From the IMG/VR virus record IMGVR_UViG_3300045988_039817: 35,165 nucleotides of DNA, one strand, 5' to 3'. Position 1 is the stretch's first letter, and each line of letters starts with the position of its first letter. This stretch comes from a virus. Shown one piece after another: positions 12,542-33,964 of the stretch. The notes beneath the pieces were generated by a model, which did not search any database, was not told the DNA's origin, and saw only the letters and a list, made by a program, of their open reading frames with translations. The translations under genes were made by a program, and so were the position numbers.

Positions 12542-12903
12542 CAGGCAAACACCTCCCAATCCCACTCGTAGTGCCAGAAGCCGGTCTCTTCCTCAAACTG
12601 GCAGCTATTCAGCGTCCAGACGAGCCCTGCGGCATCAAAGGCCGCTTCCAGCTCATCCCGCCAGGGGTCAAATTCCTGCTTCGTGAACAGGTCCGTAGAG
12701 CCGGTGACAGCTTTCTCCGCGTGAACACCGCCCGCCTCGAAGTCGTTTGCACCGTCCTCCTGCCACACCAGGTAGCGGTCGGATTGCAGCCGTCCGCCGT
12801 GGCTCACGGCATCCGTCACAGCCAGATGCGCCGCGATGACCCGCTGCGCCCACAGCGGCGTTGCGCCGGTGTCCGAATTGGACACAGCTATCTTGTCACC
12901 CAT
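12541..12903 (-). CDS. Neck/head-tail joining protein (hypothetical)
   Basis: 120-aa ORF within the connector gene string. It carries one copy of the dispersed inverted-repeat motif at codons 7-12. Confidence 0.6.
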   Translation of the reverse strand: MGDKIAVSNSDTGATPLWAQRVIAAHLAVTDAVSHGGRLQSDRYLVWQEDGANDFEAGGVHAEKAVTGSTDLFTKQEFDPWRDELEAAFDAAGLVWTLNSCQFEEETGFWHYEWDWEVFA

Positions 12904-13279
12904 CAGACACCTCGTATTTCTGCTCGATCTTGGTCAGCGTCAGATCCATGGACGCAGGATACGCGTCCGTCACCTGCTGCACCAAATCGATACCGTACTG
13001 CACGCCGTCCTCCGTGATGGCCACGCACTGGGGGCTGACGCCAGGGCGGAGCTGCGTTCGGATCACTCGCTCCACCTGCACCTGCGCCTGTTTGCCGGAG
13101 TAGTATCGTTGCAGACCCACCCGCCGCTCCTGGTAAAACAGCGTCTCCAGCAGCGTCAGCGCGGGCCGGGGCTGGTATCCGGGCTGGGCCGCATCGGTGA
13201 CGGTGTAGATCCTCACCACACCGTCCCGGTAGGGCTGGGTGATCTGCCGGTCGTCCGGCCTAAACGGTGCCTGCCGCAT
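12896..13279 (-). CDS. Head closure / head-tail adaptor protein
   Basis: Size, position and the VRIYTVTD...LWA-type pattern. Start taken at ATG 13279; the alternative is 13300. Confidence 0.6.
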   Translation of the reverse strand: MRQAPFRPDDRQITQPYRDGVVRIYTVTDAAQPGYQPRPALTLLETLFYQERRVGLQRYYSGKQAQVQVERVIRTQLRPGVSPQCVAITEDGVQYGIDLVQQVTDAYPASMDLTLTKIEQKYEVSDG

Positions 13280-13565
13280 ACTCTGACACCCGCCTCTCAT
13301 GCTGCATGGCCAGCAGCCGGTTAAGGTAGTTCGTCTCGAACACGTCCAGCGCGTCGCTCAGACCGTATCGGACATATTCCTTCAGCAGCGTCAGCGGCTC
13401 TCCGGGAGCGTCGTAGTCTCCCGCCGCGCCCAGCTTGCCGTCAATGTAGGCCTCCCCGGAAGCGATGAGGTCGGACACCTTGGTGTCCGTAGCCTCATCG
13501 CTCCAGGTAATATTGCACCAGAGCTTGACGGCCTTCAAAAGCGCGGCGCTCACCGCGCCCGCCAC
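13260..13565 (-). CDS. Head-tail connector protein (gp6-like)
   Basis: 101 aa directly after the capsid gene. LKAVKLWCNITWSDEATDTKVSDLIASGEAYI matches the gp6-like connector pattern. Confidence 0.7.
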   Translation of the reverse strand: MAGAVSAALLKAVKLWCNITWSDEATDTKVSDLIASGEAYIDGKLGAAGDYDAPGEPLTLLKEYVRYGLSDALDVFETNYLNRLLAMQHERRVSEYAAGTV

Positions 13566-13566
13566 G

Positions 13567-15045
13567 TCAGGACTTGGTGACGGTGACCGTGTAGGTCTTG
13601 GTGGCTTCGCCGTCGGGGGCAGTCACCATCACCTTCACGGTGTTGCTGCCGGTCTGCCAGGTCGCCGCCGTACCGTTGTCGATCTCCACGTCGTTCACGG
13701 TCACCTTGAGGGCCGCGGCCGCGTCAGAGGGCACAGCGGTGATGGTGTTGGTAGCGTTGGTGGTGGTCGCGGTGTAGCTAACGGTAGCCTTGGCAAAGGC
13801 GGGCGTCAGCGCCAAAGAGCCAATGGACAGCGCGCTCAGCGTAGCGTCATTGGACGGGGTGGGCGCGGTCACCTGCGTCACCTCGTAGACAGCGGGCCGG
13901 ATATCGGAGATGTCCAGCACCAGGAAGGCGTTGTTGTCCAGAGGCATACCGTTGGCGTAGGCCTTGATCAGGTAAACGCGCTCATCCTCCAGGAAACGGT
14001 AGTGGTCGCTGTACTCGATGCGGCCCTCGGGGGACGTGCCGGCCAGCGCCAGGTAGCGATACGCGATGCCCATAATGGCCTTGCCGCGAGGCAGCGACGC
14101 CGTCTGGATCACGTCCATAGGGTAGGGCATCACATCATTGCGGTACGTGCCGTCAGGCGCTTTCAGCGTGGTGGCCGGCATAATCTTCTGCAGATAGTCC
14201 TGGGGATTGACCAGGAAGATCACATCCCGGACGCGGCGAGACTTGCCGTTGGGGTCAGCCGCCATGATGGACAGCAGATTGCCCACGGTGGCGGGAGACA
14301 GGTCGGTAATCTTTACGGCGGCCTTCTCCGGGTACACGCCGCCGGTCACGACCACGTTGTCGCCCACCTGGCGATCCATGCCGATAGGCTTCTTGTTGCC
14401 GTCGCCGGTCACGAACCCGGCCTCCATGCCGTTGCTCAGCGCCTCGTACAGAGTCTGCCGGACGAAGTTGTCCAGCCACCCCGGACCGAGGTCCAGCATG
14501 GCCTTGCACACCGGCAGGAACGCGGACAACTTCAGAAGCATGGCGGGGATCTTCTTGATGCCCGCGGTCAGCTCCTTGACAATGTCGTCACACAGCTCGC
14601 CCCACACGGCTTCCTCGTAGCCGTTGGTGTTCACCATGATCTCCACAGCGCCGCCGGTGGCCCGGAAGTTGATGCGGCTCAGCAGCGGATGCGCCGTCTG
14701 CAGCTCATTGAACACGGAGTCGATCACTGTCGTCGGCAGCGCCACGTCCAGGCCGGTCACTGCCTGCTGGGGGTTGGAGGACTTCATGGCCGCACCCAGC
14801 TTCTGGTAGTAGGTCCGCTCCTCAGCGGTCAGCTGATGCACGCCCCGCTGGGCCAGGATGCGGGAGTCCAGCTCCTGCTGCAGCGCCTGAAAGCGCTGGT
14901 CATATTCCTCGCGCAGGTCCAGACCGATGCGCTGCATCATCTCGTCCAGCGCAGAATGGAACGCCTGGGTGTCGCCGGATGCAGCCGCCTGCTGAAGCAG
15001 CTGCCGCAGCTCCTCGCGGCTGCGAATGTCGTTGTTGTTCATCAT
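13567..15045 (-). CDS. Major capsid protein, HK97 fold, with coiled-coil delta domain and C-terminal Ig/cadherin-like domain
   Basis: N-terminal scaffold-like coiled coil. The central part is typical of the HK97 MCP family. The last ~92 aa are a beta-sandwich-type repeat (LSALSIGSLALTPAFAKATVSYTA...TYTVTVTKS). Confidence 0.9.
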   Translation of the reverse strand: MMNNNDIRSREELRQLLQQAAASGDTQAFHSALDEMMQRIGLDLREEYDQRFQALQQELDSRILAQRGVHQLTAEERTYYQKLGAAMKSSNPQQAVTGLDVALPTTVIDSVFNELQTAHPLLSRINFRATGGAVEIMVNTNGYEEAVWGELCDDIVKELTAGIKKIPAMLLKLSAFLPVCKAMLDLGPGWLDNFVRQTLYEALSNGMEAGFVTGDGNKKPIGMDRQVGDNVVVTGGVYPEKAAVKITDLSPATVGNLLSIMAADPNGKSRRVRDVIFLVNPQDYLQKIMPATTLKAPDGTYRNDVMPYPMDVIQTASLPRGKAIMGIAYRYLALAGTSPEGRIEYSDHYRFLEDERVYLIKAYANGMPLDNNAFLVLDISDIRPAVYEVTQVTAPTPSNDATLSALSIGSLALTPAFAKATVSYTATTTNATNTITAVPSDAAAALKVTVNDVEIDNGTAATWQTGSNTVKVMVTAPDGEATKTYTVTVTKS

Positions 15046-15062
15046 CGTTCTCCTTTCGCGCC

Positions 15063-32699: not shown

Positions 32700-32811
32700 A
32701 TGCCACCTCTCCATTTTTGATTTTCCGTGCGGCCTCCAGCGCAGCCCTTTGCCCGTCGCTGTCCAGGCCGTCAAATAACTCCAGTATCTCGCCCCTTCGC
32801 TCTTCATCCAT
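32698..32811 (-). CDS. Possible 37-aa peptide (MDEERRGEILELFDGLDSDGQRAALEAARKIKNGEVA) convergent with the cI-like gene
   Basis: Not in the ORF track. AGGGGA RBS 6 nt upstream. TTGCCC-18-TATAAA lies upstream. Its stop codon sits inside the hairpin. Weak call. Confidence 0.3.
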   Translation of the reverse strand: MDEERRGEILELFDGLDSDGQRAALEAARKIKNGEVA

Positions 32812-32957
32812 CACTCTTCCCCTTTCTGTTTATACTTAAAGCCTAACAGATAGGGCAAAAATGTCCAGCATCCCGCGCGAAAAGTGCTGTCGGAAAGTGA
32901 AAAGATTGTCGTATTCCGACAATTTTGACATAAACTGGATTTATGAGGAGGCGTACC

Positions 32958-33542
32958 ATGTCCGCACTTGATGAGCTATCCGATGAGATTTCTGCGTACC
33001 CCAATGCCATTCGCGTCGCCCGAGCCAAGGCCGGCGTGAGCAACGATCAGTTGGCTGAGCGCTCGGGCGTTCCGTACTCCACCGTGTGCAAGGTGCAATC
33101 CGGCCTGCAGAACATCACCCTGCCGCAGGCAGCTGCCATCTGCGCCGCCCTGGGCATATCGCTGGACGCGCTGATCGTCCTGCCGGACACGCGCCCCGCT
33201 GAGGCAAACACCCATGAAATGGAGCTGAAGCTCTCCGACAAAGAAGGTGATGTCCGGGTGTTGGAGGCGGTCAACGAGATGCTTACATTGCAGCTCAGGC
33301 GGCTCAGATCGTGCCTGTATGTCACCATGGTGCTCTGTGCTTTGCTGGCGATTGGCCTAATTACGTACATAGTTATCGACGCCCGCATACCGTATGCGGG
33401 ATTTATACGGACCACCGGCCTCAGCGGTGGAGCGTGGCTGTTCATTCTTTTGGTCGTCGCAGCAGCAGTCGTCATGTGCGGCCTCCTGCTGAGATTGTCA
33501 ACAAAATATACAGAAGAAAACACAGAAAGGGGCAAAACATGA
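32958..33542 (+). CDS. Membrane-anchored XRE-family HTH protein (N-terminal HTH, coiled segment, two C-terminal TM helices)
   Basis: ATG 32958 lies 7 nt after AGGAGG. IRVARAKAGVSNDQLAERSGVPYSTVCKVQSG is an HTH. CLYVTMVLCALLAIGLITYIVI and AWLFILLVVAAAVVMCGLLL are TM helices. Confidence 0.7.
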   Translation: MSALDELSDEISAYPNAIRVARAKAGVSNDQLAERSGVPYSTVCKVQSGLQNITLPQAAAICAALGISLDALIVLPDTRPAEANTHEMELKLSDKEGDVRVLEAVNEMLTLQLRRLRSCLYVTMVLCALLAIGLITYIVIDARIPYAGFIRTTGLSGGAWLFILLVVAAAVVMCGLLLRLSTKYTEENTERGKT

Positions 33543-33907
33543 TTGATTTCCAAAACGCTGCCATCGTTAAACTCAAACAATCCCGGGAAGTTCCCGCAGC
33601 CATTCGGGATATTCTCATCCCCGGCGAGCAGGTTATTGCCAACTATCAGGCCATCCGCGACTATGTCCTTTTTACCGACAAGCGGATCATCTCCTGCAAC
33701 GTGCAAGGCATTACCGGCAAGAAGCAGGACTTTACGTCCATGCCGTATAGCAAGATCACGGTGTTCTCTGTGGAGACTGCCGGCGCGCTGGATCTGGACG
33801 GCGAGCTGGAGCTTTATTTCTCTGGCGTCGGCAAAGTTCACTTTGACTTCTCTGGCAAGTGTGACATAAAAGCCATCGGCCGCTACATCGCGCAGGCCGT
33901 GCTGTAA
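33539..33907 (+). CDS. Bacterial PH-domain (bPH/YokE-like) protein
   Basis: Internal ATG 33539 in an ATGA overlap with the preceding gene. GEQVIANYQAIRDYVLFTDKRIISCNVQGITGKKQDFTSMPYSKI fits the bacterial PH-domain pattern. Confidence 0.65.
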   Translation: MIDFQNAAIVKLKQSREVPAAIRDILIPGEQVIANYQAIRDYVLFTDKRIISCNVQGITGKKQDFTSMPYSKITVFSVETAGALDLDGELELYFSGVGKVHFDFSGKCDIKAIGRYIAQAVL

Positions 33908-33964
33908 CGCTGCCCAGATTGGTGTCCAACTCGGACACCGATTTGCACAAAAAGGGGGTATCGT

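Follow-up and report, generated by a model that had tools for sequence, protein, structure and literature searches.

The 35,165-nucleotide stretch of IMG/VR virus record IMGVR_UViG_3300045988_039817 (the window, meaning the whole stretch of DNA analysed) appears to hold an integrated prophage, in which a short palindrome, GTGYCC-RA-N-TY-GGRCAC, occurs in five dispersed copies. We propose, with a probability of roughly 0.7, that these five palindromes are the cognate parS-like sites of the prophage's own 518-amino-acid (aa) ParB-family protein (ParB518), as part of a ParA-ParB module. The motif, its spacing specificity, the conservation of its positions and its exclusive co-distribution with ParA and ParB were all observed directly in the sequences compared; from these we infer ParB as the binder, its dependence on cytidine triphosphate (CTP), and a partition and/or regulatory outcome. 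An earlier sequence-only reading of the window had as its first choice parS/centromere or master-operator sites of the phage ParB, a choice that conserved positions and ParA/ParB co-distribution now support.

The palindrome in the window and in related phages

A mismatch-tolerant search of the window located all five copies previously claimed, and the gene contexts given for them hold. A possible sixth copy is listed with them.

Site a, 12868-12886, plus strand (1 mismatch), GGTGTCCGAATTGGACACA
Site e, 20506-20524, minus strand, TGTGCCCAATTCGGGCACC (on the minus strand GGTGCCCGAATTGGGCACA), symmetric GTGCCC..GGGCAC variant
Site b, 27733-27751, plus strand (1 mismatch), GGCGTCCGAATTGGACACC, codons 18-23 of the 518-aa ParB gene
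Site c, 32676-32694, perfect copy GGTGTCCGAATTGGACACC, within a longer palindrome aaagc...gcttt at 32671-32699
Site d, 33921-33939, minus strand, GGTGTCCAACTCGGACACC, centre GAGTT, 26 nt upstream of the int start codon (33965)
Possible degenerate sixth site, 8263-8279, GTGTCCGAGTCGAGCAC, 1 arm mismatch, inside a tail-region gene

Site a occupies codons 7-12 of a 120-aa neck/tail-terminator gene (12541-12903, minus strand). Site e ends 1 nt ahead of the AGGAGG ribosome-binding site (RBS) of a ParB_N-domain methylase gene, the first late/packaging gene, and no promoter-like match was found next to it. Site c starts 4 nt past the stop codon of a 106-aa cI-like helix-turn-helix (HTH) gene (HTH106; 32352-32672, plus strand), which it separates from a small convergent open reading frame (ORF), and its palindrome looks like a bidirectional terminator. 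All five sites fall within about 70 nt of a gene junction. The window contains 7 strand-wise matches to the motif, compared with a mean of 0.01 in 100 dinucleotide-preserving shuffles; none of the shuffles reached 7 (0/100), in agreement with the earlier statement that the motif recurs beyond chance. The degenerate copy GTGTCCGAGTCGAGCAC recurs at position 29989 of relative L265, whose ParB is only 56% identical. At this stringency about 0.4 matches per window are expected by chance, and the copy may be either a weak sixth site or nothing more than conserved coding sequence.

The motif had been described as the inverted repeat GGTGTCC-GAATT-GGACACC, which would make a hairpin with a GAATT loop on a 7-bp stem. 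Comparison of 79 perfect-arm sites replaces this description with a palindrome of 17-21 bp that runs through the centre, (cg)GTGYCC-RA-N-TY-GGRCAC(cg), the consensus being c-g-GTGYCC-R-A-N-T-Y-GGRCAC-c/a-g (21-bp form CGGTGTCCGAATCGGACACCG). Since A8 (79/79) and T10 (77/79) are effectively invariant, although neither was imposed by the scan, and the base between them is free, the motif is better described as a palindrome than as a stem with a loop; judged by this pattern, it is made of two half-sites of 8-10 bp flanking one free central base pair. The spacing is specific too. When the arms GTGYCC and GGRCAC were scanned with up to one mismatch across 26 ParB-bearing loci or genomes (464 kb), a spacer of 5 gave 87 sites, compared with approximately 8 in shuffled sequence; the other spacers tried (3, 4, 6 and 7) gave 3-7. 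The symmetry runs through the centre (R7/Y11 as well as A8 and T10) and leaves the middle base free, consistent with a dimer of two-fold symmetry on double-stranded DNA, as far as the sequence can indicate. The window itself stands out by the hybrid centre GA-N-TT, which is common to its five copies.

One relative is Flavonifractor phage Cormatin, an inducible prophage of F. plautii YL31 (PMC10197239); further relatives are many human-gut viral contigs of 32-36 kb. To avoid selection on the motif, 23 viral loci were retrieved by ParB homology alone (33-75% identity). Sites with up to three mismatches to the window's 17-mer were present in 23/23 of these loci, and in 22/23 a site lies inside parB, at +39 to +51 nt from the start. 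Same-position conservation, the check that the sequence-only reading had called for, was thus found at parB, and likewise at the int, cI-like, late-gene and neck positions. A site 25-30 nt upstream of int is shared by 10 relatives with Int identities of 50-98%, and 7 relatives carry one approximately 24 nt past the stop codon of the HTH106 homologue, with A/T-run flanks. The RBS of the first late gene is abutted by a site where that gene is the ParB_N-methylase (in 8 loci) and also where it is TerS (in 4). Cormatin has four sites, near positions 15329, 21480, 23600 and 28505; its late-gene site is 20 nt upstream of terS. Site positions are therefore kept even where the neighbouring gene differs. 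The neck-gene site (codons 7-12) is retained in L265 and L252, and its position also in L175, L189 and L192. In MT835558, with a ParB 56% identical to that of the window, all five syntenic sites are present.

The two coding copies of the window encode VSNSDTG (neck) and VSNSDAG (ParB), as had been read. Among relatives, the parB and neck copies keep the DNA arms while the peptide varies (VSNSDA, VSESGT, VPESDT, VSKLDT and others), the neck peptides differing as VSNSDT and VSELDT types, and the centre of a coding copy may be inverted relative to the gene. Because the arms stay constant as the peptides vary and the centre flips, selection acts on the DNA, as was surmised from the two window peptides.

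The ParA-ParB module, its distribution and its genomic context

Three genes of the window are of direct relevance to the sites.

parB, 26245..27801, minus strand, 518-aa ParB-family protein, proposed reader of the sites
parA, 27794..28576, minus strand, 260-aa ParA/MinD-type ATPase, directly upstream of parB with an 8-nt overlap
ParB_N-domain/N6-N4 DNA methylase, 19296..20493, minus strand, downstream of site e

ParB518 comprises a putative ParB/Srx N-domain with a GHRR box (residues 79-86), an ANSxTR box (122-127) and a conserved HTH (142-181, nt 27259-27378). Further on, a Cys-rich segment precedes a coiled coil, after which come a second HTH, XRE-like, and a beta domain at the C-terminus. 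It matches PHROG ParB-like families and NCBIfam Noc/ParB, and PF02195 is precomputed for nearly all of its relatives. A phmmer search of the PDB returned Noc, ParB and Spo0J over residues 24-174 at E ~1e-3, the alignment to ParB/Spo0J structures running through the HTH (residues 39-174). Noc, Spo0J, ParB and KorB were the top Foldseek matches of the predicted model, with weak E-values; the predicted local distance difference test (pLDDT) score of this model is 70-90 over residues 110-260. Across 36 non-redundant homologues, the best conserved segments are SGHRRxAA, ANSxTR and the HTH at 142-181, the last being the most conserved stretch and showing the ParB-type pattern GRxRDxVA...S..KLARL. 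A conserved ParB HTH together with the GHRR box would fit the invariant arms of the DNA half-sites.

Relative to canonical ParB, the protein has approximately 340 extra C-terminal residues. Eight invariant cysteines (C259, C265, C289, C293, C294, C297, C303 and C307) suggest a metal or Fe-S site, and the second, XRE-like HTH (residues ~400-430) ends in SVDYLMMRT; both the Cys segment and this HTH are foreign to canonical ParB. The family is large, with more than 3,800 database proteins at E<=1e-10. The adjacent parA product matches AAA_31/CbiA/ParA (E 8.6e-28) and PHROG ParA-like proteins (E 7.5e-48), with NCBIfam ParA_partition below the cut-off. Several features of a ParABS system are present: a ParA ATPase gene next door, an HTH after the N-domain, and palindromes in or next to the par operon.

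Collections were also searched with the motif only. Among the loci retrieved, ParB homologues were present in 29 and ParA homologues in 30, with identities as low as 24% and GC contents as low as 26%. For the distant ParB homologues (24-35% identity) the site is located in the parA-parB gap, at -24 to -65 nt, as found in Clostridium phage Saumur and the low-GC phages L152, L196, L203 and L234. The gap is likewise the exact location of GTGTCCCCCGGGGACAC in a pCP13-like plasmid of C. perfringens. The copies of this plasmid are as follows.

pCP13-like cpb2 plasmid L276 (NZ_CP075914.1, 25% GC), copies at 3153, 4671, 9662, 26953, 34246, 34300, 39006 and 45110

These eight GTGTCCCC-N-GGGGACAC copies (6 with perfect arms, 2 with one arm mismatch) are all intergenic with A-run/T-run flanks, and one is upstream of the cpb2 toxin gene. 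On P. sordellii pCS1, motif copies are found on both flanks of the par operon. In L272, a Lachnospiraceae conjugative element, 12 copies lie within 15 kb, and the ParB_N protein that it encodes likewise has the NFY and GHRR motifs.

A comparison of all 47 window proteins with 15 divergent motif-bearing elements identified only ParA and ParB as having homologues in 14/15. Any other window protein is common to at most 2 of the 15, and none of the HTH regulators has a homologue in any of them (E<1e-3). The sequence-only reading had asked whether the motif is phage-specific: it is not, being found on Clostridial plasmids and conjugative elements as well. A host-wide repeat, which that reading had named as a refutation, is not supported by the matches listed in a scan of a genome collection (see below). 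The motif was not found near parB of Butyrivibrio pCY186, Lactococcus pCIS7 or E. faecalis, where other palindromes occur. In the aligned Lactococcus and Butyrivibrio ParB homologues the recognition helix differs, and on this sequence evidence the three motif-free homologues set the limit of the ParB subfamily.

Two candidates were considered and rejected. The Lachnospiraceae locus L059, a fragment with 10 copies in 8 kb and no ParB, looked like a counter-example to the ParB link; the relaxase locus of L272 is 94% identical to it and encodes ParA and the ParB_N protein approximately 9 kb downstream. A third conserved partner following parB was also sought, and the downstream ORF proved non-homologous between the window, the pCP13-like plasmid and Cormatin. 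The L059/L272 element carries type IV secretion system genes, a MobL relaxase, and ArdC-like, DUF5688 and TnpV genes; its 10-12 perfect copies are nearly all at gene junctions, often just 5' of an RBS, with four lying within 400 bp upstream of a ribbon-helix-helix gene.

Judged by its ends, the window is a complete integrated prophage cut at attL and attR. A 30-bp direct repeat, CGGGTTCGACTCCCGTACCCTGCTCCAAAA, is present at both (1-30 and 35136-35165) and resembles the T-arm and acceptor 3' end of a tRNA gene; we read the window as an integrated prophage because this tRNA-like repeat bounds both ends. ARAGORN found no complete tRNA inside the window. Nearly all genes are on the minus strand, with an early operon (Cro-like HTH, HTH175, HTH84, DnaD-like initiator, DnaB, ParA and ParB) followed by the ParB_N-methylase and then terminase, head and tail genes. 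The plus-strand genes of the right end are those of the cI-like protein, another HTH protein, a bPH-domain protein and the integrase (int). A G9 run on the coding strand, at 19976-19984, breaks the methylase gene into two ORFs that overlap, 19900-20493 and 19296-20000; L265, L246 and L247 have a G8 run and an intact 398-aa ORF, and the split is a frameshift mutation, phase variation or a sequencing error. A PAPS-reductase-like (DndC-like) gene at 24086-25159 is likewise apparently split, into adjacent ORFs 24515-25159 and 24086-24508, and the annotation of Saumur includes a related gene.

Evidence against the ParB assignment and other possible readers of the sites

A number of observations weigh against ParB518 as the reader of the sites. 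Because the close phage family is syntenic throughout, co-occurrence within it fails to single out ParB; for this reason the argument rests on the distant elements. One of the ParB-selected loci, L256, lacks a parB-proximal site. At the level of the protein, the Pfam ParB_N match of ParB518 (E 5.6e-5, 23.5 bits) is below the 26.3-bit gathering threshold, and the AlphaFold (AlphaFold2) model has a mean pLDDT of 61 with a poor N-domain and weak fold-match E-values. The canonical GERR and ENxQR motifs are replaced by GHRR and ANSxTR, which makes CTPase activity uncertain. The asymmetric GA-N-TT centre of all five window sites is not predicted by a simple homodimer model. Many intergenic copies resemble bidirectional terminators, and most copies are at gene junctions. 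Finally, the element is an integrated prophage with integrase and att repeats, and its parAB genes belong to the early lytic operon; a plasmid-partition or purely centromeric role is therefore not obvious.

The resemblance to terminators raises the possibility, which we consider unlikely, that the sites are primarily RNA or single-strand hairpins, either intrinsic (bidirectional) terminators or intercistronic stem-loops, with an incidental link to ParB; an RNA-binding or antitermination factor might then be the recogniser. Site c lies between convergent genes and extends to a 12-bp stem with T-rich tails, and A-run/T-run flanks are seen at many sites in the relatives, the conjugative element and the pCP13-like plasmid. 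Nearly all sites are close to a gene junction (within ~70 nt), often immediately 5' of an RBS, and on the parB-sense strand wobble-compatible T..G outnumbers C..A by 19 to 7. However, site c is not among the calls of a simple terminator scan, neither site a nor site b, both within genes, has a T-run, and Rfam at gathering thresholds gave 0 matches in the window. The form of the site also argues for duplex DNA over a hairpin: the would-be loop is itself palindromic and conserved (RA-N-TY, CC-N-GG), and in many elements, plasmids included, the palindrome reaches the single central base, a feature of no use to a hairpin. The asymmetric centre is found in either orientation relative to transcription (sense AATTC, AATTC, GAATT, GAATT and AACTC), and sense-strand C..A mismatches occur at the conserved parB site of L242, L243, L247 and L248. 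The same 6-nt arms are found from 25% to 63% GC, which is unexpected of a generic terminator.

That the sites are read by some other factor is, in our estimation, quite unlikely. Candidates of this type are a Clostridial host protein, an unrecognised common protein, or the ParB_N-methylase or a restriction-modification system of which the sites are the target. The same arms do occur across hosts as different as Oscillospiraceae, Lachnospiraceae, Clostridium and Paraclostridium, and in many relatives the motif centre is GANTC, a CcrM-type target, the window methylase being weakly CcrM-like (E 7e-14, far below cut-off). Yet over this whole range a site is anchored to the parA-parB junction or the parB 5' end, and GANTC is absent from the window's own sites. 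The methylase, entertained earlier as a binder, is dispensable as a partner, given that the gene is absent from Cormatin, the four TerS-first relatives and the plasmids, all of which keep their sites. A scan of a 596-Gb genome collection, for which a few hundred chance matches were estimated, yielded at least 120 loci; 111 of the 120 listed have no second site within 8 kb, and the multi-site loci examined in detail are phage-like or conjugative-element contexts.

The five window centres (GAATT or GAGTT) avoid GANTC, and avoidance of restriction is a possible reason for their uniformly asymmetric form; among relatives the trend is weak, as all high-GC ones are depleted to some degree. In the window as a whole GANTC is rare (48 compared with ~125 expected from shuffles) and GATC is enriched (210 compared with ~124).

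The sequence-only reading had offered an operator of one of the HTH proteins as its alternative. Five small regulators come into question (the cI-like 106-aa protein, a 199-aa HTH protein, the 66-aa Cro-like protein, HTH175 and HTH84), for which the sites would be dispersed master-repressor or stoperator-like operators, as are known for P1 C1 and mycobacteriophage L5. Sites c and d flank the lysogeny module (HTH106, HTH199, bPH and int), and an HTH106 homologue co-occurs with the sites in the close phage family. The alternative is nevertheless disfavoured, and we regard it as improbable, since the motif is absent from the divergent cro/cI promoter region (32095-32351) and the HTH homologues are not co-distributed with it: the 15 divergent elements contain none, and only 2-3 motif-selected loci have HTH106/HTH199 homologues, as opposed to 29-30 with ParB/ParA. 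The cro/cI region (32260-32330) does contain two GTAATTAC palindromes of 8-10 bp, aGTAATTACt and gGTAATTACc, which flank a -35/-10 match TTGACA-17-TATGAT (minus strand, 32287-32259). These are probably the true immunity operators, unrelated to the motif.

A generic host-wide repeat, REP-like (repetitive extragenic palindromic) or uptake-signal-like, is hardly credible: the motif is a short GC-rich palindrome in coding and non-coding DNA with several matches in Oscillospiraceae genomes, but its positions are conserved relative to phage genes, and the matches listed in the genome-collection scan are almost all single per locus and spread over unrelated phyla, as chance predicts. The REP-like distribution that had been named as grounds for abandoning the ParB idea is thus not what the listed matches show, the multi-copy loci examined being mobile-element contexts.

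Proposed role and comparison with known systems

If ParB518 is the reader, its dimers would bind the double-stranded palindromes through the HTH and load at the sites, possibly as a CTP-dependent clamp by analogy with characterised ParB and KorB proteins. The sites could then give ParA a handle on the excised, replicating phage genome for its positioning or segregation. They could also act as KorB-like operators, roadblocks or insulators at transcription-unit boundaries, the candidate boundaries being parB itself, the point where the late/packaging operon begins, the promoter region of int, and the point where the cI-like gene ends. Intergenic palindromes with A/T-run flanks probably double as intrinsic terminators, as a secondary use. 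We weigh partition of the excised genome and transcription-unit control as about equally likely and non-exclusive, because the element integrates and parAB is in the early lytic operon. Conserved placement at boundaries despite differing adjacent genes favours some regulatory role.

A broader proposal is possible, although doubtful: that one ParB subfamily and a shared 17-bp palindrome constitute a KorB-like control layer across unrelated Clostridial mobile elements, with sites at unit boundaries that double as terminators, with loading across elements, and with a role in the prophage that concerns expression or genome folding as opposed to partition. With identical half-site arms everywhere, a ParB could load on sites that belong to a different element. 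If this were true, cross-regulation, incompatibility or conflict between co-resident phages and plasmids would be expected; the target of the system in an integrated prophage would be gene expression, or else the folding of the excised/induced genome. Such a layer would cover integrating temperate phages, toxin and conjugative plasmids (pCP13, pCS1) and conjugative elements, in gut as well as pathogenic Clostridia.

Systems of this kind are already known, namely ParB/parS, KorB/OB and the N15 centromeres with their dispersed sites. What appears to be undescribed is the site sequence, together with the ParB subfamily and their spread over Clostridial phages, plasmids and conjugative elements: the exact 17-mer was not found in the literature searched, and a search for GTGTCC, GGACAC and parS gave only noise. 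The palindrome offers a concrete candidate site for a large subfamily of ParB proteins that is otherwise uncharacterised. Its members occur in abundant temperate phages that infect Oscillospiraceae and Lachnospiraceae of the human gut, and on C. perfringens and P. sordellii plasmids of the toxin and conjugative types. It would permit annotation of centromere/operator sites in these elements, and opens chromatin immunoprecipitation and plasmid-stability work in the culturable systems Cormatin/F. plautii YL31 and pCP13/C. perfringens. It also raises the question of why integrating prophages retain a ParABS module with sites at conserved transcription-unit boundaries, and the shared arms raise the possibility of cross-talk between co-resident mobile elements.

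KorB is a ParB-family CTPase of the IncP plasmid RK2, with 12 dispersed 13-bp palindromic operators and the ParA partner IncC. The window resembles this system in having a ParB-family protein beside ParA, an odd-length palindrome with a central base pair, and dispersed copies that are mostly intergenic or promoter-proximal (5 in the window, 8 on the plasmid and 12 in the conjugative element); KorB is, in addition, among the fold matches of ParB518. The OB site itself, TTTAGCSGCTAAA, is unlike GTGYCC-RANTY-GGRCAC. In contrast to RK2, the present elements belong to Gram-positive Clostridia and include an integrating temperate phage, with one site within the parB ORF. A KorA-like partner was not identified here, no search aimed at KorA homologues having been made.

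N15 is a linear plasmid-prophage without integrase, whose dispersed sopC-like inverted-repeat centromeres are bound by SopB and also influence gene expression. Common to both are a temperate phage, a ParA/ParB-type module and palindromic sites scattered as far as the late-gene region. Unlike N15, the element described here is integrated at a tRNA-type att site, and its proteins and its site bear no sequence relationship to those of N15.

The N-domain plus HTH is matched best, in sequence and in fold, by chromosomal ParB (Spo0J) and Noc, and the arginine patch GxRR is kept. A site within the parB (spo0J) coding sequence is also known in B. subtilis. The identity is nonetheless ~20%, and the site is a 17-bp palindrome of another sequence, compared with the 16-bp parS or Noc-binding site. 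ParB518 further differs in its GHRR and ANSxTR boxes and in a C-terminal extension with the Cys-rich segment and XRE-like HTH.

The stoperators of L5 and operators of P1 C1 are similar to the present sites in that one short site is dispersed over a temperate phage in coding and non-coding DNA. Those operators are asymmetric and bound by the immunity repressor, and the L5 sites are oriented with transcription. The site described here is by contrast palindromic, absent from the switch region, and tracks ParB, not a repressor.

In the pCP13 family, the parts of the published report consulted describe a parA-parB region that contributes to a replicating/stability fragment, and a putative parS in the form of an AT-rich 117-bp stretch downstream of parB (PMC4459074). 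The passages of that paper covered here do not mention GTGTCCCCCGGGGACAC, which differs from the published parS as a GC-rich palindrome placed in the parA-parB gap with seven other copies on the plasmid. The ParB of this family is homologous, ~35% identical over the N-domain and HTH, and the parA-parB order is the same as in the prophage.

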